The notes under the pieces are model-generated. The model saw only the letters and a list, made by a program, of their open reading frames with translations. It made no database searches and had not been told where the DNA came from. Shown piece by piece: positions 3,400 through 25,382 of a stretch of 64,000 nucleotides of DNA; position 1 is the stretch's first letter, and each line of letters begins with the position of its first letter. The position numbers and the translations under genes were made by a program. The stretch is from an uncultured delta proteobacterium (GTDB lineage Bacteria; Desulfobacterota; Syntrophobacteria; Syntrophobacterales; Syntrophobacteraceae): assembly GCA_963813125.1 (NCBI GenBank), contig CAWEZA010000054.1, positions 1-64,000 on the forward strand, read 5' to 3'.

Positions 3400-3726
3400 T
3401 CAGGAGCTCGTTAGCGGCGTCAGGATAAATCCCGGCTGCCTTATCCGGTCCCACACACGTTCGGGATCAAGTCCCAAAAGATCGCAGATCCAAAGATAGC
3501 TGCCGACCTCAACTATCTTCGATTTAAACCAGTCCTGCGCCTTACGCTTCTCGCGGCGTAGTTCCTGATTGAAGTACCACCCGCGAACCCTCACCCCGTT
3601 GACCGCGACCTCGTAGCCCGAGCCCTTGCGGCGCAAGTCCTCGATCGCCTGCAGTAAAACCGCGCCCCAAAGCTCCAACTCGCCCCGGATCGGGCTTGTC
3701 TCTCCCTCGGCTTTCATCGATTCCAT
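3400..3726 (-). CDS. Hypothetical phage protein
   Basis: An ORF with an internal Met start (MESMKAEG...). It is same-strand with, and tightly packed against, its neighbours. Confidence 0.35.
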   Translation of the reverse strand: MESMKAEGETSPIRGELELWGAVLLQAIEDLRRKGSGYEVAVNGVRVRGWYFNQELRREKRKAQDWFKSKIVEVGSYLWICDLLGLDPERVWDRIRQPGFILTPLTSS

Positions 3727-5467: not shown

Positions 5468-6661
5468 TCACCCCTGACCGCCTTCCGTTTTTTCAATCCC
5501 ATCCCCCTCTTTGGAATTATTTTCAGGAATATTTCCAGCCCCGTTTTTTTGTTTTACCCCGCCGACAACACCAAACTTGACCAGAAATTTCGACAACTGG
5601 ACATCCACGTCCTCCAAATCCTCGCCGCTCGCGGGTTCCTCCACGGGCGCCTCGGCCTTTTTCCTTTTCTCCGCCGCCAGTCTTCCCGCCTCGGACGCGG
5701 CCCTTGCGGCAGCCCGCTCCTTCCTTGCATAATCTTTCAGGAGCGACCCCATGAGAAACTTCCAGAAAATGTCGTCGGGGTCCTGCCCGTGCCGCGCGGC
5801 GCTATTGACATGCTCGCGCACCGAATAAACGACATTTGAGCGCACAAACTCGTAATTTTTTATCATCTCGAACCGCCGCAGGAGCACGGCCAGGTCCCCC
5901 TCATTACGGTGTCTCTCGGGGATGAGTCCCACCAGGTCCACAAAATACCCCGTGACGCCGGCGGGATCACGCCGATCCCGCGCCGTGCCCGGCATACACA
6001 TCTGTCCCGATCGTTCGGCAATCCCGGGCATAAAGCTCACTTGCGAACCTCCCGTGACGCCTTTCTTCGCCGTGTCCTTAACGTTTACGTCGTTTTTATA
6101 TGCATTAGAAACGACGTAAACGTTAACGTGTTCCGGTGACGCTTCGGTGACGCTCGGCTGAGGCGTCACAAAAGCCTCCTCGCCCCCCCTTGACCTATCC
6201 CCAGAAACCCGCGCGGATAGCGCTTCCCGCCTCAAAGACAAAGCCGTGCCCGACCCGCATGTGACGCTCGGTGACGCCTCGGTGACGCTTGAAACCGGCG
6301 TCACATGAGCGTCACGCCCCGAGGCCGAGGCCTTTTCCATGCGCCTTCTTTCGCGCATTCGCCGCATGCGCTCAGTCGAGCCCCCGCGCGTGTAGCTCCG
6401 TTTCTTGAACTCACGCAGCGACCAGCACCCCTCGCGCTTTACCGCGACCTGGTGACGCTCCCATTTGCGCGTAACAGCGTCCCACCTCTCGGCCGGACAT
6501 CCCACGGCGACCCGAAGCACCTCCTCGGGCATCCCCGCGGCTTCTCCGTCCGCCTCGAGCATATGGAACCTGAGCAGCCAGTACGCCTCATCGGCCTCCA
6601 GGCTCGCGGCATACGGGCTCGAAAGCCAACCCCTGCAAAACGCGGCAGATAGTCCGGCCAC
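5468..6661 (-). CDS. Putative phage replication-associated protein with iteron-like repeats inside the coding sequence
   Basis: A 397-aa ORF with a low-complexity middle (HVTPVSSVTEASPSVT / FVTPQPSVTEASPEHVNV) encoded by repeated GTGACGC motifs. It sits in the early region between the recombination genes and the excisionase-like gene. No catalytic motif was recognised. Confidence 0.4.
   Translation of the reverse strand: MAGLSAAFCRGWLSSPYAASLEADEAYWLLRFHMLEADGEAAGMPEEVLRVAVGCPAERWDAVTRKWERHQVAVKREGCWSLREFKKRSYTRGGSTERMRRMRERRRMEKASASGRDAHVTPVSSVTEASPSVTCGSGTALSLRREALSARVSGDRSRGGEEAFVTPQPSVTEASPEHVNVYVVSNAYKNDVNVKDTAKKGVTGGSQVSFMPGIAERSGQMCMPGTARDRRDPAGVTGYFVDLVGLIPERHRNEGDLAVLLRRFEMIKNYEFVRSNVVYSVREHVNSAARHGQDPDDIFWKFLMGSLLKDYARKERAAARAASEAGRLAAEKRKKAEAPVEEPASGEDLEDVDVQLSKFLVKFGVVGGVKQKNGAGNIPENNSKEGDGIEKTEGGQG
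6054..6315. promoter_or_regulatory. Iteron array (6 direct and 3 inverted GTGACGC copies at ~10-12 bp spacing) plus a 15-bp perfect palindrome with an AT-rich spacer (6080..6124)
   Basis: Direct GGTGACGC copies lie at 6054, 6135, 6146, 6261, 6271 and 6283, and inverted GCGTCAC copies at 6163, 6298 and 6309. AACGTTTACGTCGTT-N15(TTTATATGCATTAGA)-AACGACGTAAACGTT is a perfect inverted repeat. Confidence 0.55.
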
Positions 6662-12385: not shown

Positions 12386-14030
12386 GTGAAACAGCGCCTC
12401 AATGAAACAAATGAAAGGAGGAGGGGGCAAATCCCCGCCGGCGACAAAATGATCCGTCTCATGAAAAATGCGTCATACGAGGTGCAAGCGCTTTTTGAGT
12501 GGATCGAATACATCCTGGAGGCGCGCAAAAACAAAAAGAGCGGAAAACCGCCGCCAATCCGGGCAGGCAGGGAGTATCGCGAGGCGCTCAAAGCCATCAA
12601 TGATGGCGAACCGATTATATTCGTATCGGGAAGGGCTGGAACGGGCAAGACGTGCTTGATCGAATTTCTTCAGAAAAAACTCTCCCAACGAAACATTGCG
12701 ATCGTTGCGCCAGCCGGAGTCGCCGCCCTTAACTTGCCGCGGGCGCACGATACACTCCTTCTTTCGATTCAGCCGCGATATCGACCTCAAAAGAATACAG
12801 ACGGTCAAGAACAAAAAACAAAGGCTACAATATGAAAAGCTCGATCTGCTCATCGTAGATGAAGTCTCCATGGTGCGAGCGGACTTTGATGGACGCTATG
12901 GTGAAATTCCTCGAACTCAATGGGAGGCAGCCCGGCGCTTCGTTCGGCGGCGTTCAGGTGGTCCTGATCGGCGATCTTTTACAGCTTCCACCCGTCGTAA
13001 AATGGAAGAATAAGCTTGACAAGGAAAAGTTTGATAAGAAAAACGGGGTGTACGCCAGCAGGTACTTTTTCGGCGCAAAATTTTTGGAGGGTTCAAAGGA
13101 GAGTCCAACACCCTACTTCATAGAGCTTAAGCAAAATCGACGACAGAAAGACCGTAAATTCCGAGAGTGCCTTGATAGCATACGGATCGCGGAAGGCCAC
13201 ACCGAGGCAGTCGAGACAATCAACGCGAGTTGCCACCGAAGGGACAACCCGGACGGAAGCACTCTCGTTCTGACATACACCAGGAAAGATGCCGCGAGAA
13301 TTAATAACGATAAAATCCATGAGTTGGCCAAGCCCCGACAACCGGCGCTATTTCAGGCACAAACAGGAGGCAAATCCCGCTGCAGGACGACAATGAGGGA
13401 GACGAAGAGAACAGACACCCATATTGTCCCGCACCGAGGGAGCTAAAGCTCGCAAAGGGGGCGCCGATCATGTTTATTCTAAACGATAAAGACGGAAAAT
13501 GGGTCAACGGCACCCTGGGAGTGGTCGAATCAGTCCCAAGCGACTTTGGCCCTCCGATCGTCGTAGTGCTAAAGGACCGCCCCACGGTGAAGATAGAGGT
13601 TGAACCTGAAACATGGTGGTTTGACAAAGAATACTCCCCCATTGAACCCGAAGACAGTGAAAAGTTTGATACCTATAAACAGTATCCAATCATGCTGGCA
13701 TGGGCCGTTACAATACATAAGGCCCAAGGCCTTACGCTAGACAGCGTCGGGATTGACCTGGGCAAGGTAAAGGATAAGGGCGACAAGGAGCAAGAAAGGG
13801 CAATCTCGGAGAAAGGTCTATTGTATGTGGCTCTCAGCCGCTGCAGGTCCCTCGCTGGCATAAAACTGGAGAACAAGATCAAGGACTCGGATATCAAGGC
13901 AAGCGAGGAGGCATGTGAGTATTACTGCAAGCTCAGGGCTTACCAATCACAGCGATCCGCCCGATTTAAGCCCTACTGTCCCCCCTCTGCCAAGGCTCAT
14001 CGCGTGAAGGACTCGCCGATAAATCTCAGG
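12386..14030 (+). pseudogene. PIF1/RecD-like helicase disrupted by three frameshifts (ORFs 12386.., 12696.., 12859.., 13470..)
   Basis: Walker A GRAGTGKT, Walker B LLIVDEVSMV, GGVQVVLIGDLLQLPPV and the C-terminal AVTIHKAQGLTLD...YVALSRCR motifs fall in four different frames (2, 0, 1, 0). Confidence 0.75.
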
Positions 14031-14037
14031 CGTTCGG

Positions 14038-14207
14038 TGAATGTACAAGCCGCGAAAGCAAGGAGGCGATTCTCTGAAATTATCGAGCGGGCGGGCTGCG
14101 GACGAGAGCGCATTGTCCTGACAAGGCGAGGCAAGCCGCGCGCAGTCCTCGTATCGATCGAGGATCTCAAGTTACTCGAAGATCGTGTTGACAGTGATAA
14201 TGAATGA
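14038..14207 (+). CDS. Phd/YefM-like antitoxin N-terminal domain (possibly truncated, orphan)
   Basis: RFSEIIERAGCGRERIVLTRRGKPRAVLVSIEDLKLLED matches the Phd/YefM core (ITRRGKPVAVLVS). It reads in frame with the helicase tail, and a GTG start at 14038 was assumed. Confidence 0.4.
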
Positions 14208-14351
14208 AATCCCCGAAAGGGAAGGGCGGCCGCAGGCGATCCGCACCCCGGCCCCGGCCCCCTTGACGCCGGCATCCGGAAAGTGTACCGTTGAATACAC
14301 ATTGCAGTGTGATCGGAACGCGCGGCGGACCATCAAAGGGAAGGATTGCCA

Positions 14352-14624
14352 ATGCTTAGTGTGCAACTCGATGAAGGCCTCGAAAAAAGATTCGAGCAAC
14401 TCTGCGCGGCGGTCAAAAGAGACCGGGAAGACTGCCTGCGCGAGGCGATCGAGCAGTATATGGAGGACCTGGAGGATATCATCGTCGCGACCAGGCGGCT
14501 AAATGACGATGATGCCGAAACCTCTGAAATTATGGCGGATGCCGGCCTGATGGAATCGATCCGAGAGGGCAGGGACCAGGCAAGACAAAGGATCGGCCGA
14601 CGCATTGAAGAAATCGACGTCTGA
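14352..14624 (+). CDS. Ribbon-helix-helix antitoxin (RelB/ParD/CopG-like)
   Basis: MLSVQLDEGLEKRFEQLCAAVKRDREDCLREAIEQYMEDLED is an RHH fold signature. The stop overlaps the toxin's start (ATGA). Confidence 0.7.
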   Translation: MLSVQLDEGLEKRFEQLCAAVKRDREDCLREAIEQYMEDLEDIIVATRRLNDDDAETSEIMADAGLMESIREGRDQARQRIGRRIEEIDV

Positions 14625-14923
14625 TGGATTGGGCGGTTTACTTCACGGAAGAAGCCCGCAAATTGCTCCTGCGCATTGAGGACAGACGCGTTCGGGCGCT
14701 CATCAAGTCGAGGGCCTTGCGTTTGAGCGCAAGTCCCCGCACGCAGGGTAAAGCGCTTGGCGGAGAACTTTCCGGCTTAAGAAGCGTGCGAGCCGCCGGG
14801 CAGCGTTACCGAATCATCTATGAAGTGTTTCCCGAAACAGGCGAAGTGTGGGTTGTGGCATTGGGCATACGCAAAGCGGGCAGCCGCGATGACGCGTATG
14901 AACTGGCGAAGCATTTGCGTTAA
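14624..14923 (+). CDS. RelE/ParE-family toxin
   Basis: A 99-aa protein. RYRIIYEVFPETGEVWVVALGIRKAGSRDDAY matches the RelE/ParE C-terminal pattern (riiYrv..e...v.vl.igh.rk..Y). Confidence 0.75.
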   Translation: MDWAVYFTEEARKLLLRIEDRRVRALIKSRALRLSASPRTQGKALGGELSGLRSVRAAGQRYRIIYEVFPETGEVWVVALGIRKAGSRDDAYELAKHLR

Positions 14924-14946
14924 ACCCTTTTAGATCGCCCGGCTCC

Positions 14947-16218
14947 TCAAACCGGCCCCTCCGCCTCCCCACGCTCCACAGTCTGCCCCGCGCCCTCCGC
15001 GATCTCTCCTATCGCCGTTCCCTCCGGAGTGGACAGCATGGCCTGCAGGGCCATGGCGGCGTTGCGCTTCTGGTCCGGGCAAAGATGCGCGTATCTCTCC
15101 GTCTGCTCGATCTTGCCGTGCCCCATCAGCTCCTTTATCGTCTGAAGGCTAGCTCCCGATATCGCAAGCCAGCTCCCGAAGGTGTGCCGCAGGGAATGGA
15201 AAACGAGCTTGTGCCGCCTGTCCCTGACTCCGGCGTTTAGCCCCAGGTCCTCGACGGCTTTGAAAAAACTCCCGGAAACGCTTTTTATCTTCTTTCCGCC
15301 GCGGTCGGTGAAGACGTGTTCGTCCGGGCGGCCGCCCTCGGCGAAGACAACGGCCAGCTCGTCGGTCATGTACGCCTTCCGCGCGAGATCCCCCTTCGGC
15401 CCCCGCGAGTAGTCCGGCCCGAGGATGTGGATCGTCCTGTCTTTGACATCGACGTCGGCCCACCGGAGGTTCCAGATTTCTCCGGCGCGCATGCCCGTGT
15501 GAAGCCCCACGAGGCAAATTTCGTAAAGTCTCTGGCTGTACATCTGGACGCGCTGCAGCAAAAGGTGCGCCTCGCTTCGGCTAAGATATCTCAGCCTGTT
15601 CGTGTGCCGGGTGCTGGGGAACTTAATCCCCCGGGTAGGGTTTTCCCCGTGAAAGTCACCCCACGCGATCGCCTTGTTGATCACTTCGCGGGCAAGTCCC
15701 AGGACGTGCTTTATCGTTTGCGGGGAAAGCTTCTGCTTTGTGAGACCGCTCTTTATCCGCTCGAAGTGAAACGGGCTTATCTCCGAGAGCGCGAGATGCC
15801 CCAGGGCGTCCTTGAGATGCTTCTCATATCTCACCTTATCATCCCCGAAGCTGCGCCGGTTCACCTGCGCCCACTCGTAAAACTTCTCCCACGCCTCGGA
15901 AAAGGGCAGCTCCTTTTTCTCCCCGGGCAGCTCCTCTCCGTGCCTCATGGCCCGGATTCTCTCCGCGCGGATGTGCCCGGCCATCTGCGGCGTATAGCCC
16001 TCGCTCTGCCACCCGATCTTTTCCCACTTGAGCTTTCCGGCCCGCGTCTTGTAGCAGATGTCGTAGCACTTGTCGGGCTTTCCCAAATGCCTCCTCACCG
16101 CCGACTCCCGGACAAACACCCCGGTCCTGTGAGTCTTTTGCCTCGTCCCCGCCGCCTTGACCTCTCCAGCCTCTTTCACCGGCGCTCCCTTCCTTCGAAA
16201 AAAAATCGCACCCGTCAC
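14947..16218 (-). CDS. int: Tyrosine-type site-specific integrase
   Basis: The C-terminal catalytic region HSLRHTFGSWLAISGASLQTIKELMGHGKIEQTERYAHL gives the R...H-x-x-R...Y signature. The gene is adjacent to a tRNA 3' fragment. Confidence 0.9.
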   Translation of the reverse strand: MTGAIFFRRKGAPVKEAGEVKAAGTRQKTHRTGVFVRESAVRRHLGKPDKCYDICYKTRAGKLKWEKIGWQSEGYTPQMAGHIRAERIRAMRHGEELPGEKKELPFSEAWEKFYEWAQVNRRSFGDDKVRYEKHLKDALGHLALSEISPFHFERIKSGLTKQKLSPQTIKHVLGLAREVINKAIAWGDFHGENPTRGIKFPSTRHTNRLRYLSRSEAHLLLQRVQMYSQRLYEICLVGLHTGMRAGEIWNLRWADVDVKDRTIHILGPDYSRGPKGDLARKAYMTDELAVVFAEGGRPDEHVFTDRGGKKIKSVSGSFFKAVEDLGLNAGVRDRRHKLVFHSLRHTFGSWLAISGASLQTIKELMGHGKIEQTERYAHLCPDQKRNAAMALQAMLSTPEGTAIGEIAEGAGQTVERGEAEGPV

Positions 16219-16306
16219 GACCTAAAAAAAACATCCCCCGAACCCCGAAAAAAACGCCCCCGCGGGGGCGGAAAATCCGTTTTTTACACCTCGATTTTTA
16301 TCCCAG

Positions 16307-16606
16307 TAGCTAACCCTTTGCTAACCTTTTCCCCCACGTTGCCATATCCCCCCATATCCCGAGCCCCCCGCGCCAAAAGGCACGACCCGCATGAAGCCTG
16401 CCTTTGCGCCCTCCCATGTCATCGGCCTGGTAAGCCGAAAGCAACGCCCCCCTCCGGAGCCCAAAAAAGCCTCCCCCCACCGGCCCGAACTTTTAAAAAA
16501 AATTCTCCAACGCCGGGACCTCGGATCCTGCCCCACCCGGCCTCCGAAATCAACTCTTTTTTGCTAACGCCTCGCTAACCTCCCGGCGATATCTCCCCAT
16601 ATCCCG
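16307..16606. repeat. Two ~50-bp imperfect direct-repeat modules (GCTAAC(C)x2 + ATATCCCC/CATATCCC) between int and the att core; candidate integrase arm-type sites
   Basis: GCTAACC lies at 16309, 16320 and 16574, and GCTAACG at 16563. (C)CATATCCC lies at 16343, 16353 and 16598. Confidence 0.45.
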
Positions 16607-16696
16607 CAATAACTCCCATCCCCCCGAACCACCCCCGAATCGGCCATCCACCCCCATTCCCCACCCCTCCCCGCATCCCGCCATACCCCCCGCACC

Positions 16697-16742
16697 ACGG
16701 CCTTTCACGCCGACGACACCGGTTCAAATCCGGTTGGGGACG
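16697..16742 (+). other. tRNA-Glu(UUC) 3' fragment (anticodon arm to acceptor 3' strand), probable att core/attR
   Basis: CGGC-CTTTCAC-GCCG forms an anticodon stem-loop with U33 and anticodon TTC. A T-arm ACCGG-TTCAAAT-CCGGT is followed by TGGGGACG, matching E. coli tRNA-Glu CUUUCAC...GGGGACGCCA. No D-arm or 5' acceptor strand is present upstream. Confidence 0.7.
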
Positions 16743-16753
16743 CTAGTAAGATC

Positions 16754-16791
16754 AAGGGGTTAAGCTGAGAAGCTTGACCCCTTTTTCTTTT
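16754..16791 (+). terminator. Rho-independent terminator (13-bp stem, GAGA loop, T-tract)
   Basis: AAGGGGTTAAGCT-GAGA-AGCTTGACCCCTT followed by TTTTTCTTTT. Confidence 0.7.
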
Positions 16792-17285
16792 GGGGGGGAC
16801 TTTTCAGGATAACCGGGACCGAGCGAAGCTCAATATGCCTTCCTGACGCGACTTGTGCCCTCTGGAGTAAAAGTTTCCATGGGCGAGTATCGGGGACGAT
16901 GATTTTGCCCGTCCTCTCCATTCATATTTTGAAATCAAAGATAAAACACTCCCTTTTCGCGTCAGGCTATGTATCTTTCGCCGACTGTAATCGCGCGGGC
17001 TAAAAAATAATGCCAAATATCCCCCCAAATGAGGCCATTACCCATATCAATCTACATGATCGGTCTTATATTACACTTGGTTTTATAAACCCTTCGTCTG
17101 GAGGAGCCGAAAGTCCTTATCCCTGAATCCTTATGCCGGAAAGGAGGGACCGATTGGAGTGAAGGCGTATGGGGTCTCGAACGCGGTCGGAGACCAAGCT
17201 TGAACCAATGAAGATGTTCAAGACGGAATCCGTCCGTATAGTCAGGTCCCTGGTTTACCGAATTGCCCGGAAAGGAGTGGATAAA

Positions 17286-17585
17286 ATGAGAAAAGCATTG
17301 GTTGTCGCGATCGCTGTTTCACTGCTCCTTATCGGCGGCGGCTTTGCGACCGCACAGGCGAATGGCTCCTGCAACATCAACTGGTCCGCCCTGTCTCCCT
17401 GCAACTGGCACGCGCCCAACCTGTGCGCGTTCCATTGTGACGCGGTGGCCGCGGAGCCCACGCCTCCTGCTGCGGAAGTAACTCCACCGACGCAGGAAAA
17501 ATGTTCACTTTGCAACATCAACTGGTCCGCCCTATCTCCCTGCAACTGGCACTGGCCGCATTTTTGCCCGGTCTGTGGCAGCTAA
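17286..17585 (+). CDS. Secreted Cys-rich small protein with two near-identical tandem repeats (CNINWSALSPCNWH)
   Basis: The RBS is GGAAAGGAG. The signal peptide is MRKALVVAIAVSLLLIGGGFATAQA. The mature ~75-aa region has 10 Cys, and the two ~43-nt DNA repeats differ at one position. Confidence 0.5.
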   Translation: MRKALVVAIAVSLLLIGGGFATAQANGSCNINWSALSPCNWHAPNLCAFHCDAVAAEPTPPAAEVTPPTQEKCSLCNINWSALSPCNWHWPHFCPVCGS

Positions 17586-17848
17586 GTCGGCGTGGGATGC
17601 TGAATTGAAGGGGGGTGACAATGCAGATTGAAACGTCGGACTTCCTTCCGATAAAACACCGGAAGGAAGTCCTGTTTTTGTGCCGTCCCGGCTTTATCGG
17701 GCCTGTAATAGAGAATGCTCCCCGCCCCGCCCATAACACACCCCGGCTATATCATTCGAGTACGGAGCTGTCCGGTACGCTCAGGATTGCCGCCAGGTCC
17801 TCGGCCGTCCCTATGTGTCGGCCCGGCATCCGGCAGCGGGTCCCCGGT

Positions 17849-17944
17849 TCACAGCCGAGCTTTTTCGCGATCGCAGATAGCTGCAGAGCGTTCCGGCAGC
17901 CACATCGGCAGCACTCGTTTTGATGTTGTGCGCAGATGGTTGCT
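17849..17944 (-). pseudogene. Degraded paralog of the 11511..11756 prophage gene (MSNHLRTTSKRVLPMW..., then out of frame)
   Basis: Nucleotide similarity to 11700-11760 extends through the RBS and start (aaactcctt...atgagcaac...caaaacgag). Indels break the frame after ~30 codons. Confidence 0.55.
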
Positions 17945-17974
17945 CATATATAAACTCCTTAGCGTCGAAGCGCC

Positions 17975-18607
17975 GTGATTATGTTTGGCGAAATTCCTCG
18001 AAATTCCGAACAGGGGAGGGTGGCCGTGAGCGATCCCGCAAAAAAGCCTGCAACCTATGAAGACCTTTACGACATCCCCGAAAACATGATCGGGGAGATC
18101 GTTGACGGGGAGTTGACCGTAACACACAGGCCCACGAGGGAACACGGTTATGCGGCAACGACATTGATTGAAGAGGTCGGACCGCCATATCATCGCGGGC
18201 GTGGCGGACCGGGGGGATGGATCTTTATCGTAGAACCCGAGATTATCTTCGGCGAGGACGTCCTGGTGCCCGATGTGGCGGGATGGAAGGCGCAAAGATT
18301 CATATGGGAAGAGGATCGAAATCCCATCTCGGTCGCACCCGATTGGGTGTGCGAGGTCCTCTCGCCAAAGACCATCCGCAATGACAAAGTAAGAAAAATG
18401 CCCGTTTATGCCCGCCATGGCGTTGGACATATCTGGCTTATCGATCCCGCCGCCATGACGATGGACGCCTTCCGGCTCGAATCGGGCGGATGGTTCTTGC
18501 TGGCGAGCTTTTCAGAAAACGACAAGGCGCGGGTAGAGCCGTTCCAGGAGATTGAAATAAATCTCGACTATTTGTGGGCCGAAAGCTCGAAGCCTCCAAT
18601 ACCATGA
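17975..18607 (+). CDS. Uma2-family (DUF820) putative endonuclease
   Basis: YEDLYDIPENMIGEIVDGEL...PDWVCEVLSPKT are Uma2 signatures. The true start may be an internal GTG near 18024. Confidence 0.75.
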   Translation: MIMFGEIPRNSEQGRVAVSDPAKKPATYEDLYDIPENMIGEIVDGELTVTHRPTREHGYAATTLIEEVGPPYHRGRGGPGGWIFIVEPEIIFGEDVLVPDVAGWKAQRFIWEEDRNPISVAPDWVCEVLSPKTIRNDKVRKMPVYARHGVGHIWLIDPAAMTMDAFRLESGGWFLLASFSENDKARVEPFQEIEINLDYLWAESSKPPIP

Positions 18608-18862: not shown

Positions 18863-19249
18863 TTAAAACAACGGGTTATCGATACGCTTCAATTCCCGAA
18901 TATGGAGGCCGACGCTTTCATTGTTCAAAATGGCCACATTTTCAGCACGCCCCACAACGATAACTTTTGAGTTGGCGGATGGCGTCGTGCCACTGGTCAC
19001 TACCGCGATCTTACTGCCGTCATCACTTAAAAAGTAGAGCTTCAGGTTTACCAGAGGGATCTTGGTGATTCCCGAAACCGTTCCTCTTACCTTGACCTGC
19101 CTGCCGTCATACGCCGACGGGTTGTTCAAGATATCTTTTACGCTGGTGAACCCAAAAGGCAGGTACTGGCAGCCGGCGCTCACCAGCAGGAGTGAAAAGC
19201 TCAAGAACATGATGATTCCGCCTGTCCAGGCGAAAGCTTTCCGTTTCAT
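18863..19249 (-). CDS. Lipoprotein, possibly OB-fold (BOF/YgiW-like)
   Basis: The signal/lipobox is MKRKAFAWTGGIIMFLSFSLLLVSAGC, and GRQVKVRGTVS is an OB-fold-like segment. Confidence 0.45.
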   Translation of the reverse strand: MKRKAFAWTGGIIMFLSFSLLLVSAGCQYLPFGFTSVKDILNNPSAYDGRQVKVRGTVSGITKIPLVNLKLYFLSDDGSKIAVVTSGTTPSANSKVIVVGRAENVAILNNESVGLHIRELKRIDNPLF

Positions 19250-19472
19250 CCAACCCCCCATCCTGATCCGCCCCCGTGCGTTTCTACGTCTGGGGCTGAC
19301 CGTCCGTCCCGACCAGGCTACGACATTTATAATGATAGTAATCTAAATTTCCCCATTCACAAGTACCTGAAATTTCCAGGGGCGGCAATTCAAAATTGCC
19401 CGGGGAAAGCCACCCTGACCACTCGTAATAGGGGGCGTGGGGCAGAAAGATGGCGCTCAGGAACCTCGAAAA

Positions 19473-20027
19473 TCAGATCAGCATGATGATATCGACGATC
19501 ACCAAACCCGGAATGGCAACCAGAGCTAAATAATCTAGAAAAGCGCTCATCCAGCCTAAACGCTGAATCCAAAGCCCGCCGAGTATTCCGGCTCCATATC
19601 CGGGGAAAAGGCCTGCGAATCCGCAGAGCATCAGCTTCCACCCGGAGTGTGAAAAGCCGAGCCTGCCAAGCATCAAACCGGCGGTTACTCCCAGAAAAAC
19701 AAGAAATAGAAATATCTCTACCCTGAAGGATTCATACGTTGGAGGCGTGCCTGCCGACGATACGATGCTGTTGATAAGTAGGGCGACAAAAACGGCGCTC
19801 CCCAGGATGCCGAATATCCACCCGGAGATCGAGCCTTTCTCGCAGGCCGCCGTAAATCCCCACACGGCGGCGCCCACGGAAAGAAAGGTGACTATCGTGA
19901 ATTCCAAAGGGAGATGGCCGGCAAAAGGCGATCGGTATTTTTCCTCGCTCGGCCTTACGCGTCTCCACAGAAGGGAGGGGAAGAATTTAAGATGAAAATC
20001 AAAGGAGAGAAACTTCGGTGGGTTCAT
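19473..20027 (-). CDS. Hypothetical integral membrane protein
   Basis: A 184-aa ORF with ~5 hydrophobic helices. Confidence 0.45.
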   Translation of the reverse strand: MNPPKFLSFDFHLKFFPSLLWRRVRPSEEKYRSPFAGHLPLEFTIVTFLSVGAAVWGFTAACEKGSISGWIFGILGSAVFVALLINSIVSSAGTPPTYESFRVEIFLFLVFLGVTAGLMLGRLGFSHSGWKLMLCGFAGLFPGYGAGILGGLWIQRLGWMSAFLDYLALVAIPGLVIVDIIMLI

Positions 20028-20252
20028 ATGATCACGGATTCGATGGTATTTTGTTTATCGTCCATAAAGCCTCATTATATCGATACAAGTTTATTCCAAT
20101 TTGAAGTTCCGGGCAAATAGATTCCGGAGCAGGCCGGAGGGCGGATATCGCACCAACCGCGTTTGCGTGGTGCTCTTCGTTTTAGCGGGTACGGGGCGCC
20201 GTCGTATACCTGGACTGGGTACGCAGCCTGTGTTGCATCGTAAAACTTCATG

Positions 20253-20281
20253 TTGACTAATGCGCCTGCTTTCTTTAGTAT
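20253..20281 (+). promoter_or_regulatory. Sigma70-like promoter (TTGACT-N17-TAGTAT) upstream of the precursor peptide gene
   Basis: The -35 TTGACT is at 20253-20258, the spacer is 17 nt, and the -10 TAGTAT is at 20276-20281, ~65 nt upstream of the ATG. Confidence 0.55.
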
Positions 20282-20348
20282 TGTCAGGCGATTATGGTAT
20301 GGCGTGTGTGCTGTTATTTAAGGAAATTACAACAAAGAGGGAGACTTC

Positions 20349-20510
20349 ATGGAGATTAAAGAAAGAAGCGAAAGCGCGGGCGGGAACATGGTCCTCGAAA
20401 GCGAGTCTTACACTGTGATGTCTCTATGCGCCGGCTTGGCCGTTGCTGAGGTCGGCGACGGAAACTGTTTCTCCTGTGAAGGCTATATCACGGTTCCCTG
20501 CAGTTGCTGA
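20349..20510 (+). CDS. RiPP-like precursor peptide (53 aa, 5 Cys in the C-terminal half)
   Basis: The RBS is AAGAGGGAG, 5-8 nt before the ATG. The peptide is MEIKERSESAGGNMVLESESYTVMSLCAGLAVAEVGDGNCFSCEGYITVPCSC. It sits immediately upstream of two rSAM/SPASM genes. Confidence 0.6.
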   Translation: MEIKERSESAGGNMVLESESYTVMSLCAGLAVAEVGDGNCFSCEGYITVPCSC

Positions 20511-20632
20511 CGCCATGTAACGCAGTACCCGACCGATCTCCGGCAGGGCGGGATTGGGATGCCGTGCTGTTTGCTCTTCGAGCATGAGCAAGGCGCCATA
20601 TTTCATTACCAGAGCTGAGTAAGTGCACGGTC

Positions 20633-20676
20633 GGCGTGAGTCCTTCCAGTGTGGAGGACTCACGCCATCTCTTTTT
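20633..20676 (+). terminator. Intrinsic terminator/attenuator between the precursor and maturase genes
   Basis: GGCGTGAGTCCT-loop(TCCAGTGTGG)-AGGACTCACGCC followed by ATCTCTTTTT. Confidence 0.6.
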
Positions 20677-20785
20677 GCGTCTCCGATGGATTATCTCCAC
20701 GTATTCTCCGTCCGCTGCCTCAGGTAAATAAGAATAAAGGAAAGAAGAAACGGATTCTCACGGCCCCCTCGAGGTTACGAAGAAT

Positions 20786-22228
20786 TTGATAGAGTTGGAA
20801 CGCGGCGGCGATGAGTTGCTGCTTGTGAACTCTTTCCACATGCTTCCGCTATACGTGGCTCGCGGCAAAAAGGGTGTGAAGCGCGTACTCTCACAGGTCG
20901 GGGGCAAAACGTTTGAAGAGCTCCTGGCCTTATTCTCCGGGGACACGGACCTCATCCGAATGCTCAGGGACCATCGCATCCTTGTCGATTCCTCCCGCGA
21001 GAAGGAGCGGTGTGAGCGCACGGGCATCGACGCGGCTTTAGCCGCGCCACCTCTGCCCAAGAACAAGATGACCGTTTTCCTCCTGATTACTGAATCATGC
21101 AACCTTGGTTGTGTATATTGCCTTAACGGCTCGGGGACTTATCGCAAAAGCCCGGGCGCGCTCATGAGCCCCCAGGTCGCCATGCGCAGCATCACGGCGT
21201 GCCTGGATCAACTTGGCGCCGGCGGCACCCTTCAAGTGACCTTCTTTGGGGGCGAACCGCTCCTTAATTGGCCCCTTGTAAAAGAGGTGATAAAGCAATG
21301 CGAGCAATTACCCGGGCAGACGTATGGCGACAAGAAGATTGCATATCATATAACCAGCAATCTGACCACATGCCCTCCCGATCTGATCGAAACGCTAAAA
21401 AAGCATAAAATCACCGTCTTATCCGATATCGACGGGCCCCCGGAAATTCATAACCGTTGCCGTCCCTTTCTGCGCGGCGGAGCTTCTTATGCCCGGAGTG
21501 CGGAAACTATACGCAGGTTGGTAGACGCCGGAATACCGGTAGCTCTGCGCGCTACGCTTACTTCCGTCAATCAGGACTGCGTCGCTGATATTGCCGCCCA
21601 CCACAAGGCGCTCGGCGCCGGTAATTGCGGCCTTGTGCCGGTCTGCCAAATCAATTCCGATCGGCAATACCTGCCTGAGTGGCTTCTGCCCGATCCGGAC
21701 AGGATTATCGCCGGGGTGGTGAATGTATATCGCAGTGGATTATGGGAAAGGACGAAGCTCTTCCCGTTCAACCAATATGTTTTGAAATTGCGTCCCGGCT
21801 CGCGGCAGACTGTGGGCTGCGCGGCTCCCTCGGGCGCCGTTCCGGTCATCAACGCCAACGGAGACGTTTACCTGTGCGCCTATCTTGTCGGCCAGGAGAA
21901 GTTCCGCTATGGAACGTCGTCAAACGCATGGGACCGGCGGTTGCTCGAAGAAACGTCGGCCTCACTGCATGTCGATAATCTCCCGGGGTGTAGCGCATGT
22001 CCCTGGCGATACGCGTGCGGAGGTGGATGCCCGGTGATGAGACTGGGGTTTTACGAAGTGGAAAAAAACCCTGTGGCCGCGGAATATGGACGGAGAATCG
22101 TCTGCGATTTTAGCAGGGCAGTTTTGACCGAGTGTCTTTGGGACGTGGCGGACAATGTGTCGGCCTCCATTGCCGAGGGGCGGGGGCAACACCGTGGACC
22201 GGCGCTCGACCCAACGCTTTTTTGCTGA
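20786..22228 (+). CDS. Radical SAM/SPASM-domain peptide-modifying enzyme with an N-terminal RRE-like domain (paralog 1)
   Basis: The CX3CX2C motif is SCNLGCVYC. The C-terminal SPASM cysteines are CAAPSGAVPVINANGDVYLCAYL...GCSACPWRYACGGGCPVM. The N-terminal ~90 aa (LERGGDELLLVNSFHMLPLYV...TFEELLALF...ILVD) is PqqD/RRE-like. The only canonical start is a TTG with a GAGGT SD. Confidence 0.85.
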   Translation: MIELERGGDELLLVNSFHMLPLYVARGKKGVKRVLSQVGGKTFEELLALFSGDTDLIRMLRDHRILVDSSREKERCERTGIDAALAAPPLPKNKMTVFLLITESCNLGCVYCLNGSGTYRKSPGALMSPQVAMRSITACLDQLGAGGTLQVTFFGGEPLLNWPLVKEVIKQCEQLPGQTYGDKKIAYHITSNLTTCPPDLIETLKKHKITVLSDIDGPPEIHNRCRPFLRGGASYARSAETIRRLVDAGIPVALRATLTSVNQDCVADIAAHHKALGAGNCGLVPVCQINSDRQYLPEWLLPDPDRIIAGVVNVYRSGLWERTKLFPFNQYVLKLRPGSRQTVGCAAPSGAVPVINANGDVYLCAYLVGQEKFRYGTSSNAWDRRLLEETSASLHVDNLPGCSACPWRYACGGGCPVMRLGFYEVEKNPVAAEYGRRIVCDFSRAVLTECLWDVADNVSASIAEGRGQHRGPALDPTLFC

Positions 22229-22274
22229 AACAAAAGAGGAGTTCCCCTTCTCGGACTCTGCATCGGGGTACCCC

Positions 22275-23714
22275 ATGAGGGCTCAAGTGTTGCTCGAATT
22301 GACCAAAAACCTGATCTCCCTGGAAAGGGGCCGCGACGAGTTGCTCCTGGCAAACTCGTTCCACATGATGCCTCTATATGTTAAGCGGGGCAGGGAGCGT
22401 ATAAAGGGCGTGCTCGACCATGCATCCGGCGGACGCACGGCAGAAGAGTTGGAAGCGGCATTTCCGGGGGATGTCGGCCTCATCGAGCTCCTTCGCGATA
22501 ATCGCATTTTGGTCGACAAGTCATTTTACCCCGACGGGTTCGATCTCGCAGATATCGCGGCGGAAAAGATCCAGTCCGGCCCCCGGGAGAGGATCACGCT
22601 TTATCTGCTGCTTGGCGAATCCTGCAACCTGGACTGCATCTACTGCCTGAACGGACCCAAGACATACCGGAAAAATCACGCAGAGGGGATGGGCGCGCGG
22701 ACTGCCCTGAGAAGCATCGAGAAATGCCTGGAGGAACTCGTTCCCGGAGGCGTGGTGGAAGTCGGTTTTTTCGGGGGCGAGCCTTTACTTCACTGGCCGG
22801 TGGTCAAGCAGGTGATAAGCCGTTGCGAAAGTGAGATCGGGCCGGCAAACCCCGATAAAAAAATACGATATCACCTTACCAGCAATCTGACACTGTGTCC
22901 ACCAGACCTGGTCGAATGGGTGACACGCTACAAGATTACAATAGTCTGCGGGATCGACGGTCCACCGGAGATTCACGACCGATGCCGGGTCTACCGCGGA
23001 GGCGCCCCGTCTCATGCGCGCAGCGCGGACACTATACGCCGGCTTGTGCAGGCCGGAGTACACCCCACCTTGAGGGCAACGATCACTTCAGCCAACCATG
23101 ACCGGTTGCACGAAGTAGCTGCGCACCACACCCTGCTTGGAGCCGCCGCCTCGCTGTTTATCCCGGTACGCCCCATTAATTCGGACAGCGAGTTTTTCCC
23201 GGAACAGATCCTGCCCGACCCGGAAAAAATCATTTGCGCCGCAGTCGAACTCGGTCTCGGCGATTCTTCGGGCAAGGCAAACCTATTTCCCTTCAATGAT
23301 TTTTCAGCCGATTTACGCCCCGGCGCCCGATATGTAGTCGCCTGCGGCGCTCCCCGGGGGGCCACTTACGTGGTGCGGCCCAACGGCGACATTTATCCCT
23401 GCATCTATCTCGTCGGCCAGAAACAGTACAGGCTCGGAAATGTGACCGGCATGCTGGATCGTAGGCCCCTTGAAGAAATGTTTACCGCTTTACACGTGGA
23501 TAACCGCGAAGATTGCCGGACTTGCGCCTGGCGGTATGCTTGCGGCGGCGGCTGCCCGGTCATGAATCTTGCGCGCATAGGCGGCGCCGAGAAGAGCGCC
23601 CGTGTGGTGGAGTACAGCCGCAGGATCACCTGCGACCTGAGCCGGGCGATCCTTTCCGACGCCCTCTGGCGTCTCGCCGACCGGGGCTTAAGCGGAGTTG
23701 CCGGACAAGTTTGA
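22275..23714 (+). CDS. Radical SAM/SPASM-domain peptide-modifying enzyme with an N-terminal RRE-like domain (paralog 2)
   Basis: GESCNLDCIYCLNG, CGAPRGATYVVRPNGDIYPCIYL, and CRTCAWRYACGGGCPVM. It is ~45% identical to paralog 1 over its full length. Confidence 0.85.
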   Translation: MRAQVLLELTKNLISLERGRDELLLANSFHMMPLYVKRGRERIKGVLDHASGGRTAEELEAAFPGDVGLIELLRDNRILVDKSFYPDGFDLADIAAEKIQSGPRERITLYLLLGESCNLDCIYCLNGPKTYRKNHAEGMGARTALRSIEKCLEELVPGGVVEVGFFGGEPLLHWPVVKQVISRCESEIGPANPDKKIRYHLTSNLTLCPPDLVEWVTRYKITIVCGIDGPPEIHDRCRVYRGGAPSHARSADTIRRLVQAGVHPTLRATITSANHDRLHEVAAHHTLLGAAASLFIPVRPINSDSEFFPEQILPDPEKIICAAVELGLGDSSGKANLFPFNDFSADLRPGARYVVACGAPRGATYVVRPNGDIYPCIYLVGQKQYRLGNVTGMLDRRPLEEMFTALHVDNREDCRTCAWRYACGGGCPVMNLARIGGAEKSARVVEYSRRITCDLSRAILSDALWRLADRGLSGVAGQV

Positions 23715-23847
23715 CATCGGCCGCAGCATAAACCTCTAACCTGGAACGGAAGGAGGAATTATGGGGAGCGCTTGGTAATACGAGCCCCGTCACATCATGG
23801 AAGGACGGGGCCTTTGTTCCCGCGGGACTTTTGCGGGCAGTTGAGAG

Positions 23848-25122
23848 TTACTTTCGTTTTACAGGGGCCCCTGATGCCGGCGAAGAACCTTTTAGCCATT
23901 CGCTGACGAAATCATTCAAACTTGAGGGGAGCCACCACAGCGATAAGGTGCTTGGCAGCTTGCCGTCAGTCTTTTGTCCGAAATTTCTCAGGGCATCGGC
24001 TGCGGCCAGCGCCTGAATGGTTCCCGTATAAGGGCTGAGACTCTGAGCAATGGCCTGGTCCTGGGAAGCGATGTAGCGCCGATTTATGGCGCTCTGTACT
24101 TCGGGGTCGAATTGAAAGGTATCGGCCCAACCTATGTAATCGAGGGTAACGCCGACCGAATCTAGATAAGCGGTCAGTTTTTTCTGGACATCCGCCATAA
24201 TCTGCCCCGCGGCACCATTGTCCTGGTCAAAGGTGCGGCTGGTAAACTCTTCACCGAGCAGGGCCTGCACCTTGTCCCTCACCACCCCGTCCATCACCTC
24301 CGTGAGACTGTGGCCGTAATAGACAGAGGTAAAGATTACTTCCGGTCTGGTACGGTTGCCGACTGGAGGCTTTATGCCGAAGCGATACAGAAATTTGGGG
24401 GCGTTATCTTCCGATACGGATGCAGCGATGGAAACGCCGACTGTGATGTTTAGCCCCTCTTTGCTCTGCACGGGAAAACCTTCGTTTCTGCTGGAAGTCC
24501 CACGGTTTGATTCGGTAACCCACTCACGGTTATACGGTGTGCGGTCGACAATAATCAGACGTCCACCCGGAACATAGTAGTCCTTCCAAAAAGCTGAGTT
24601 TTCCAGTTTGACGTGAGGAATGACGAATCGCTTGGCCGCGATTTTATGTTCCCGCAGATATTCCTCCGATTGGAACGAGGCCTGGCCGTTTTTGTTGTTC
24701 CCCACATCGGGAATAAAGAAGGCCGACTCATTCGGAAGAATAAAGAACGGCTCGGCGTAATCGGACTGGTTGTAGTAGGCATAGCAGGAGGTGCTCGCCG
24801 TGAGTACGGTCAGCAGCACCAGCGGGACCAGACCCGACTTGATGAAAGACCGCAGCGGTTTCCACCAGATCAGAGCAATGATGGCCAAAAGAACAAGAGC
24901 CGGGACACCGAGGTGTTTGAAGAAATCCATTCCAAACTGCGACGTGACATAGGCCATGTCGCTGTTCTCGAACTGTTTGGCGGCCATCTTACCCGCACCC
25001 AGAAGGGCCATAGAGTTGAGAAGGTAGTTGATCCAACCGTAAATCATAATGGATGCCACGGTAAGAACCCCGCGTATGATATAACCGCGGCCTCCATTGT
25101 TCTCCAAATCATCAAAACCCAT
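23848..25122 (-). CDS. SPFH/band-7-like membrane protein
   Basis: The RBS is AAAAGGAGAAAA. There are ~3 N-terminal TM helices. The C-terminal region VRDKVQALLGEEFTSRT...VTLDYIGWADTFQFDPEVQSAINRRYIASQDQ fits an SPFH domain pattern. Confidence 0.55.
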   Translation of the reverse strand: MGFDDLENNGGRGYIIRGVLTVASIMIYGWINYLLNSMALLGAGKMAAKQFENSDMAYVTSQFGMDFFKHLGVPALVLLAIIALIWWKPLRSFIKSGLVPLVLLTVLTASTSCYAYYNQSDYAEPFFILPNESAFFIPDVGNNKNGQASFQSEEYLREHKIAAKRFVIPHVKLENSAFWKDYYVPGGRLIIVDRTPYNREWVTESNRGTSSRNEGFPVQSKEGLNITVGVSIAASVSEDNAPKFLYRFGIKPPVGNRTRPEVIFTSVYYGHSLTEVMDGVVRDKVQALLGEEFTSRTFDQDNGAAGQIMADVQKKLTAYLDSVGVTLDYIGWADTFQFDPEVQSAINRRYIASQDQAIAQSLSPYTGTIQALAAADALRNFGQKTDGKLPSTLSLWWLPSSLNDFVSEWLKGSSPASGAPVKRK

Positions 25123-25382
25123 GCTTTTTTCTCCTTTTATTGAGCAGTCCAATCTAATTGGCTCGAAAATAAACAAATCGCTACTCCTTATAAATTCGGA
25201 TGGTACTCGCCATCATATCAATAAAATAAATGGATCCGCTCTTCCTTCTTCATGCCAATCCCTAATCCGTGAGTAAAATCCACGAGGGTCACTGAAAATC
25301 CCCAGGTGAGAGCAGGGGAGTAGCCTGCCAAGGGTTTAGGCATAGTGATCCAGTGGTTCACCGAGGGGGGAAGGCCCCGAAG

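Follow-up and report, generated by a model that had tools for sequence, protein, structure and literature searches.

A Cys-rich precursor gene followed by two radical SAM/SPASM maturase genes: a probable RiPP operon with thioether formation as its most likely chemistry

Maturation of a Cys-rich precursor peptide by a radical S-adenosylmethionine (SAM)/SPASM enzyme bearing a RiPP recognition element (RRE) is already known among the peptides that are synthesised on ribosomes and modified post-translationally (RiPPs), and so are clusters with two radical SAM maturases, as in thuricin CD (TrnC/TrnD) and ruminococcin C (RumMC1/MC2). The PapB family forms freyrasin-type Cys-to-Asp beta-thioethers, QhpD matures the gamma subunit of quinohemoprotein amine dehydrogenase, and the TIGR04117 targets with the TIGR04115 maturase (CXXX-repeat target system) are in-silico families of Haft. 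Here we report on a cluster at positions 20253-23714 (+ strand) of a 64,000-nt stretch of contig CAWEZA010000054.1 (GCA_963813125.1), hereafter the window, in which the gene of a 53-residue Cys-rich peptide is followed by two paralogous radical SAM/SPASM genes. On sequence grounds the cluster is probably a RiPP operon of the radical SAM/SPASM type, with thioether formation as the most likely chemistry; such bridges join Cys sulfur to the alpha carbon of the acceptor in sactipeptides and to a non-alpha carbon (C-beta or C-gamma) in ranthipeptides (PMC10288494).

The central features are as follows; related loci are referred to by number (L001 and so on).

20337..20343, + strand, Shine-Dalgarno sequence GAGGGAG, 5 nt before the precursor ATG (AAGGGAG in L001)
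20349..20510, + strand, precursor peptide of 53 residues, MEIKERSESAGGNMVLESESYTVMSLCAGLAVAEVGDGNCFSCEGYITVPCSC, recognised as an open reading frame (ORF) and by family alignment and conservation
20786..22228, + strand, rSAM1, clade A radical SAM/SPASM maturase, 480 residues from TTG 20786, with GAGG 11 nt upstream
22275..23714, + strand, rSAM2, clade B radical SAM/SPASM maturase, 479 residues with ATG 22275 as start; the mechanically called ORF begins at 22155

A preliminary description had read this region as a RiPP-type cluster in which a novel Cys-rich precursor, encoded by a 53-residue ORF with a strong ribosome-binding site, is served by two tandem RRE-bearing radical SAM/SPASM maturases, and that central reading is supported by the present analysis. 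Three outcomes had been named beforehand as refuting it, namely a small ORF not conserved beside homologous enzyme genes, N-terminal domains without an RRE fold, and anSME-like enzymes with a sulfatase gene nearby; all three were examined and none overturned it. As a kind of system the cluster causes no surprise, since uncharacterised radical SAM RiPP clusters exist in their thousands. What is new is the precursor family with two dedicated enzyme clades, outside the curated models and the literature searched, together with the conserved terminal Cys of clade A and a strictly C-terminal four-Cys core.

Two radical SAM/SPASM enzymes and their nearest described families

rSAM1 and rSAM2 share 52% identity over their full length, as expected of the tandem paralogues first described, and both contain the Radical_SAM and Fer4_12 Pfam domains, with 67.3 and 55.4 bits for Radical SAM (PF04055) against a cutoff of 29.5. 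In a family alignment of 21 sequences, both window enzymes included, the Cys residues of the CX3CX2C motif (C105/C109/C112, rSAM1 numbering) and the seven SPASM Cys (C345, C364, C402, C405, C411, C415 and C440) are invariant, and both enzymes pass the SPASM model TIGR04085 (44.5 bits for rSAM1 and 62.5 bits for rSAM2, cutoff 27), so the motifs proposed for them are confirmed; the Pfam model PF13186 is marginal for rSAM2 (20.6 bits, cutoff 21.5) and gives no match for rSAM1. Judging from homologue N-termini, rSAM2 most likely starts at ATG 22275 and not at 22155. The N-terminal domains of both enzymes are RREs by predicted fold, a winged helix of three beta-strands and three helices superposable on known RREs, which covers approximately residues 1-65 of rSAM1 and is complete in rSAM2 (residues 1-83). 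The C-terminal tail of rSAM1 (22214-22228) ends in Cys, as is typical of clade A, and this clade A tail is disordered in the AlphaFold2 model of the radical SAM enzyme (pLDDT 84.9, pTM 0.86); rSAM2 has no such Cys tail.

The closest solved structure is CteB, both by sequence profile (5WGG, E = 3.9e-44) and by fold (Foldseek TM 0.68/0.74 over 462 columns, the N-terminal domain included), followed structurally by anSME, TigE, ChlB, SkfB and SuiB. The CteB/SCIFF system shares with the present one an N-terminal RRE, a radical SAM core, a seven-Cys SPASM domain with two auxiliary clusters and an adjacent Cys-rich precursor. However, identity to CteB is only about 18-19%, the window precursor has no SCIFF similarity, two paralogous maturases are present here instead of one, and the hosts are Desulfobacterota and Planctomycetota-type metagenome-assembled genomes (MAGs), not Clostridia.

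Among NCBIfam families, the best matches of clade A, clade B and the outgroup described below are PapB, the nif11-peptide radical SAM maturase, the SCIFF maturase and QhpD, with 130-182 bits against cutoffs of 340-519. PapB, a radical SAM/SPASM enzyme working on Cys-containing cores, ranks first among curated families whether the query is either window enzyme, the closest clade B orthologue or the outgroup (155-182 bits); yet the window enzymes score 155.2 and 161.7 bits with the PapB ranthipeptide maturase model (NF047865), well under its cutoff of 340, the model covers the catalytic part only, and the present core lacks a repeated C-x3-D. The other scores are likewise below cutoff: 130.5 and 144.5 bits against 425 for the SCIFF maturase (TIGR03974), 148.6 and 157.3 bits against 518.7 for the nif11-like peptide maturase (TIGR04064), and 130-138 bits against 453 for QhpD (TIGR03906), which introduces several Cys-to-Asp/Glu thioethers into one small polypeptide containing Cys and whose amine dehydrogenase genes are absent nearby. 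With the SynChlorMet models (cutoff 400), rSAM2 reached 61 bits for ScmF (TIGR04251) and its SPASM part 18 bits for ScmE (TIGR04250), so that searches proposed earlier with TIGR03974 and TIGR04250/04251 left both enzymes below the cutoffs. Thuricin CD and ruminococcin C resemble the cluster in having two paralogous radical SAM/SPASM maturases side by side in one RiPP cluster, and the thuricin CD maturases TrnC and TrnD act synergistically (PMC12093266, PMC8188230). Those systems have two or more precursors, whereas one precursor is available to both enzymes here; the RumMC model gives 73-81 bits against a cutoff of 720; and they belong to Firmicutes, with S-to-C-alpha bonds shown experimentally.

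The precursor family and gene order among relatives

The window precursor carries in its leader the family motif LE.E(S/A)YTV.SL, a form of the more general block (V/L)(L/V)E.(E/D)(S/A/G)YT(V/I).SL, and the family ends in a Cys-rich core, ...C(C)xxCPxYTTVPCxC-stop, with the C-terminal consensus ...SDGSCCACPSYTTVPCSC. Y21, L26, L30, C40, C43, Y46, P50, C51 and C53 are invariant in a 23-member alignment, and T48 is nearly invariant across the family. In the wider set the Cys of 'SLC' is exchangeable (SLS, SLG, SMW), and the four core Cys, the Tyr and the Pro stay; the peptide terminates directly after ...PC.C in all members but one. Relative to this consensus, the window precursor belongs to a divergent subtype, in which CC is replaced by CF, P by E and T by I, and four residues are deleted.

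Several searches contributed to the family. A word-indexed search with the precursor gave one non-self homologue (85% identity), and the homologues of the window enzymes (more than 1,100) led to loci with a 52-83 residue ORF of the family directly upstream. Scanning metagenomes with the precursor alignment returned 17 loci, a profile search returned 23 proteins, and an exhaustive hidden Markov model search of 1.84 billion representatives (50% clustering) returned 13 short precursor representatives, giving about 35 distinct peptides over all searches, among which identity between loci falls to about 35-40%. No Pfam or NCBIfam model matches any family member (23 precursors in the case of NCBIfam), in agreement with the earlier remark that the peptide resembles neither SCIFF nor other known precursors. 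The core motif is absent from the searched literature, as is the combination of radical SAM, SPASM and RiPP with Syntrophobacter, and the main text of a compendium of 15,000 radical SAM RiPP enzymes has no mention of these taxa (PMC10288494). No second precursor-like ORF was found in the window. Because the search patterns were short, a scan of genome contigs with the enzyme alignment brought up generic SPASM enzymes of SCIFF type for the most part, with only L006-L014 and L025 relevant. The plasmid collection contained no enzyme relative above about 30% identity and no precursor.

Conservation of the small ORF beside homologous radical SAM genes, a check suggested at the outset, was found at more than 20 loci, mostly with both clades: the precursor family adjoins A or A+B in L001, L002, L005, L006, L087-L102, L105, L108 and L111, and wherever a locus offers enough sequence it adjoins clade A. 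The generic mark of a RiPP cluster, a short precursor gene that is conserved across lineages beside a modifying enzyme and has a conserved leader and core, is present here. The order precursor, rSAM_A, rSAM_B is seen in L002, L006, L087-L089, L091, L093, L095-L101 and L105. In L108 and L110, the precursor is adjacent to rSAM_A but divergently transcribed, so that the operon structure is not kept; the L108 peptide is placed as follows.

L108 216-392, - strand, precursor MAEIEK...SECCAPCPSYTTVPCSC, divergent from rSAM_A

In L006, L091, L093, L096, L099 and L104, B precedes the gene of a fused ATP-binding cassette (ABC) exporter (ABC_membrane + ABC_tran, MsbA/HlyB-like). One sub-clade (L002, L005, L086-L089) has a third, shorter radical SAM/SPASM enzyme without RRE upstream of the precursor, whose best matches are anSME, DynA and DarE (L002 4592-5617, L005 3590-4702, L089 4646-5881) and which is absent from the window. 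Three loci, L001, L005 and L111, have A only, with the core motif unchanged: in L001 the first approximately 17 codons of B are left as a deletion scar (L001 7734-7830), a polysaccharide deacetylase gene follows A in L005, and a response regulator gene follows it in L111. rSAM_B has thus been lost at least three times.

Among the best 120 enzyme matches, on which the clade counts rest, 34 belong to clade A, 29 to clade B and 54 to an outgroup about equidistant from both (43-47%). Full-length clade A members end in Cys ('...DRxxFC'), one shorter sequence does not, and most outgroup members keep a terminal Cys as '...DNTINC'; clade B lacks the tail. Since the tail is shared by A and the outgroup and absent in B, and the outgroup is equidistant from both, B is an old duplicate of an A-like gene, and the two form separate clades that split long ago. 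The window A enzyme is 91% identical to that of L001, 79% to L111, 76% to L002 and 65% to L108, and the window B enzyme 85% to L108 and 65% to L002, which suggests a mosaic module history, with recombination or exchange of B genes between clusters. A varies together with the precursor subtype and is never missing, and B does not follow this pattern; A would therefore be the primary, substrate-specific maturase and B a partly exchangeable partner.

The outgroup enzymes are single genes upstream of ORFs of 93-125 residues with a twin-arginine signal and CxxxC-type repeats (L107 1561-1938; L008 8469-8750). These Cys-repeat ORFs match TIGR04117 of the CXXX-repeat target system weakly (31 and 22 bits) and carry an 'SY.V.S' motif common to the present precursor leaders. 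In contrast, the window precursor has neither CXXX repeats nor a twin-arginine signal, and TIGR04115 gives about 58-60 bits against 350; the outgroup system looks related to but distinct from the precursor/A/B system.

Proposed maturation route and competing explanations

In the proposed route, the 53-residue precursor would be translated efficiently from its own strong ribosome-binding site, and its leader motif would dock on the N-terminal RRE of A and of B. Each maturase would cleave SAM at its CX3CX2C [4Fe-4S] cluster, and the two SPASM auxiliary clusters would hold and oxidise the substrate during crosslinking of the core C-x2-C-x2-Y-x-T-V-P-C-x-C-stop. A hydrogen would be abstracted from an acceptor carbon in the core and that carbon coupled to a Cys sulfur held at the auxiliary cluster, most likely giving intramolecular Cys-S-to-carbon thioether bridges as in PapB, CteB/SCIFF and QhpD. 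Clade A would be the primary maturase and clade B, the product of an ancient duplication, would either contribute a second step or help A; B may thus install a distinct cross-link or, by analogy, support A in the way TrnC and TrnD assist each other (PMC12093266). Precursor mRNA probably outnumbers enzyme mRNA owing to the hairpin that follows the precursor gene, and in most relatives an MsbA/HlyB-type ABC exporter would then secrete the product. The system adds a precursor family and two radical SAM/SPASM clades from poorly cultured anaerobes to the radical SAM RiPP catalogue. Its testable features are an invariant four-Cys/Tyr/Thr/Pro core, a sharp leader motif and two enzymes, A and B, that form a pair of ancient origin but also occur naturally as A alone, and it suits the study of two RRE-bearing maturases sharing one substrate.

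A number of findings weigh against this reading, or against parts of it. The preliminary description spoke of an N-terminal PqqD/RRE-like domain, and while the RRE part stands by structure prediction, the PqqD sequence models are silent: PqqD (PF05402) gave no match at E <= 0.1 with the full proteins and none at E <= 10 among 15 isolated N-terminal domains, and a profile search of the PDB with the N-terminal domain found no solved RRE. No curated family cutoff is reached, which leaves nearest neighbours of 18-30% identity as the sole guide to the chemistry, and the structurally similar set takes in other chemistries (TigE, anSME, ChlB, SuiB). A promoter-like site upstream of the precursor gene is the only one in the 4.1 kb scanned (19900-24000), against a mean of 2.1 in shuffled sequence, and the match is therefore not above chance by itself. 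The suggestion of two distinct crosslinking steps on one precursor is weakened by the A-only loci, where B is absent with the core unchanged, and by the frameshifted B of a sister assembly; the A-only loci argue that B can be dispensed with, and two necessary steps are doubtful. The remaining counter-evidence concerns the state of the window copy.

The family is real, but it is less likely than not that the window copy is a decaying, largely non-functional remnant. The evidence centres on the 5' end of rSAM1.

20735..20785, + strand, former 5' end of rSAM1: TAA at 20735-37, then in-frame RKEETDSHGPLEVTKN, homologous to the N-termini of relatives

In L002, L005, L089 and L111, rSAM_A begins with a conserved GTG (GTG AAA GA(A/G) ...; MKETDSHGPL... 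in L002). In the window this ancestral codon has been destroyed by deletion of a T between G20739 and G20740, as seen in the comparison of L111 AATAAAGTGAAAGAAG with the window AATAAAGGAAAGAAG, and the same T is gone in L001. The 16 in-frame codons after TAA 20735 still encode the homologous N-terminus, and there is no ATG, GTG or TTG between this TAA and TTG 20786. What remains is the TTG with a Shine-Dalgarno sequence at 11 nt, and rSAM1 started there lacks about 16 N-terminal residues, including the conserved 'L.VTKNL' segment that forms an extra beta-strand in the RRE domain model. Moreover, tblastn found no ABC exporter, U32 peptidase or third radical SAM gene (rSAM_C) in the 64 kb, the window core is without one conserved Cys and the conserved Pro, and the sister lineages L001 and L111 are without B. 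The sister assembly L103 (an independent Logan assembly, ERR11563597) matches window 19088-25229 at 99.84% identity over 6.1 kb; at its position 3696 (window 22784) one T is missing, a 1-nt deletion that splits rSAM2 into ORFs of 206 and 300 residues and may be either a real population variant or an assembly error.

By these signs the window copy is partly eroded, and given the lost A start, the missing exporter and the divergent core, its output may be reduced or absent. Full decay fits less well with the remaining evidence. Both radical SAM ORFs are intact (480 and 479 codons) with every catalytic Cys present, and dN/dS (the ratio of nonsynonymous to synonymous substitution rates) against L001 is 0.21 for rSAM1 and 0.38 for the precursor, which indicates that purifying selection has acted over the two lineages combined. 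L001 and P0145/L111 share the divergent core subtype, which argues for a maintained variant rather than random decay. TTG start codons are common in bacteria, and an exporter could be encoded elsewhere in the genome. In L001, a 148-bp deletion (6157-6290 versus window 20505-20800) removes the spacer hairpin and fuses an upstream ATG in frame (MRRKEETDSHGPLEITKNLIELERG), and thereby seems to compensate for the loss of this same start codon.

Within the RiPP operon, a chemistry without thioethers is unlikely. The enzymes of such an operon could cross-link Tyr or Thr by C-C or C-O bonds, carry out epimerisation, or act on the C-terminal ...PC.C-COOH; the four invariant Cys would then be ligands (metal or redox) in the mature product, and this product would represent either a cofactor-like molecule or a new class of RiPP. 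The invariant Y46 and P50 and nearly invariant T48 lie beside Cys, the peptide stops right after ...PC.C in nearly the whole family, and the C-x2-C...C-x-C pattern may be likened to a metal-binding knuckle. TigE, SuiB and ChlB are non-thioether radical SAM/SPASM enzymes, the equivalog cutoff of no thioether family is reached, and clade A carries an unexplained conserved C-terminal Cys. Yet three of the four best curated families (PapB, SCIFF, QhpD) are characterised thioether formers, the best solved match is CteB, and sacti- and ranthisynthases characteristically act on Cys-rich cores (PMC10288494); nor are additional genes of the kind found in cofactor pathways (PQQ, mycofactocin) conserved nearby. 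Thioether bridges thus stay the preferred outcome.

It is rather improbable that the A/B pair installs an undescribed modification pattern on the strictly C-terminal four-Cys knot C-x2-C-P-x-Y-T-T-V-P-C-x-C-COOH, and we rate a chemistry other than sacti- or ranthi-type thioethers just as cautiously. The pattern could consist of mixed thioether and Tyr/Thr cross-links, terminal-Cys chemistry, or a metal- or redox-active exported peptide. If this is true, anaerobic Desulfobacterota, Planctomycetota and their relatives would possess a new class of RiPP, and the A-only and A+B loci would form a natural system for dissecting the division of labour between tandem radical SAM maturases.

Finally, the idea that the enzymes mature proteins, as anSME does for sulfatases or QhpD for an enzyme subunit, with the small ORF incidental, is hardly credible: anSME (TIGR03942, PDB 4K36-4K39) is a clear structural and sequence relative with the same radical SAM core and SPASM fold, and QhpD is among the four best families, but the window enzymes score 81.3 and 91 bits with the anSME model (81-106 bits with A, B and the outgroup included) against 349 and stay below the QhpD cutoff as well, both have an RRE that anSME lacks, tblastn found no sulfatase in the window, and the small ORF, which has no C/S-x-P-x-R motif, is the only partner conserved across phyla. 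On the anSME check proposed beforehand the enzymes scored far nearer to PapB, nif11, SCIFF and QhpD, and with no window sulfatase and low anSME scores this alternative is not supported. A sulfatase gene does lie about 5 kb from the cluster in a Syntrophobacteraceae MAG (L002/L003 1-1040, - strand), beyond an ABC transporter and on the opposite strand; neither the window nor the other loci show it, and its position is probably coincidental.

Regulatory elements and genomic surroundings

The following elements surround the genes of the cluster.

20253..20281, + strand, promoter-like site TTGACT-17-TAGTAT, 9 of 12 consensus matches, putative function
20584..20622, + strand, 12-codon upstream ORF (uORF; MSKAPYFITRAE, stop), whose ATG is reused in L001 as the rSAM_A start and is ATA in L111
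20633..20676, + strand, terminator-like stem-loop GGCGTGAGTCCTTC / GGAGGACTCACGCC, then ATCTCTTTTT, between precursor and rSAM1, by folding
23784..23817, + strand, terminator-like hairpin GCCCCGTC...GACGGGGC, then TTTGTT, between convergent rSAM2 and SPFH genes, by sequence and folding

The promoter-like site, 68 nt upstream of the precursor, is suggestively placed, since homology between the window and L001 begins at 20237; the -35 element is kept in L001 (TTGATT) and the -10 element is not. The promoter claimed at first is the weaker part of the description.

The spacer between precursor and rSAM1 is 275 nt long. Its stem-loop (20633-20666) has 14 pairs including one G-U, of which 12 are perfectly complementary, is GC-rich and is followed by a T-run; it folds with -29.6 kcal/mol (z = -5.27), a stability that 0 of 200 shuffled sequences reached. 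Most relatives have a strong GC-rich stem-loop in the equivalent spacer, with different sequences, and the hairpin probably acts as a partial terminator or as a stabiliser of the mRNA 3' end. No conserved alternative pairing or leader ORF was found around it, so that 'terminator-like hairpin' is justified and the term 'attenuator', used at first, is not. The uORF was considered as a classical attenuation leader, as its stop lies 11 nt ahead of the hairpin in a layout resembling classical attenuation, and was rejected: with ATA in place of its ATG in L111 it is probably not a conserved feature, and it is probably not functional in the window. The 148-bp difference from L001 was likewise considered as an insertion, possibly a miniature inverted-repeat transposable element with the hairpin, that disrupts the 5' end of rSAM1. 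This too was rejected; the segment is single-copy and without terminal inverted repeats, and its right part and the hairpin region are common to L002 and L111, so that the long spacer is the ancestral state and the difference is a deletion in L001. The hairpin at 23784-23817 likely marks the operon end.

An integrase gene, a Uma2 gene and an antitoxin fragment lie 2-6 kb upstream of the cluster, with these coordinates for the first two.

14947-16218, - strand, tyrosine integrase, upstream of the cluster
17975-18607, Uma2-family (nuclease-like) gene, upstream of the cluster

The cluster had been placed in an accessory island next to a tRNA integration hotspot. The second half of this statement fails, as ARAGORN found no tRNA or tmRNA gene and Rfam nothing at gathering thresholds in the whole window. 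The island itself fares better: window-L001 homology is confined to 20237-22325 and the flanking genes differ in L001, L002, L005, L006, L108 and L111, although the GC content of the cluster is not deviant. Judging from these flanks, the cluster behaves as an accessory module. The stretch 13470-18607 looks mobile, comprising an ORF that fuses a helicase fragment to a Phd-YefM antitoxin, the tyrosine integrase and the Uma2 gene. Downstream of the cluster lie genes for SPFH, acyl-CoA dehydrogenase, PilZ and FtsK proteins, and beyond FtsK a run of about 20 kb of co-directional + strand ORFs extends from 30810 to 52089.

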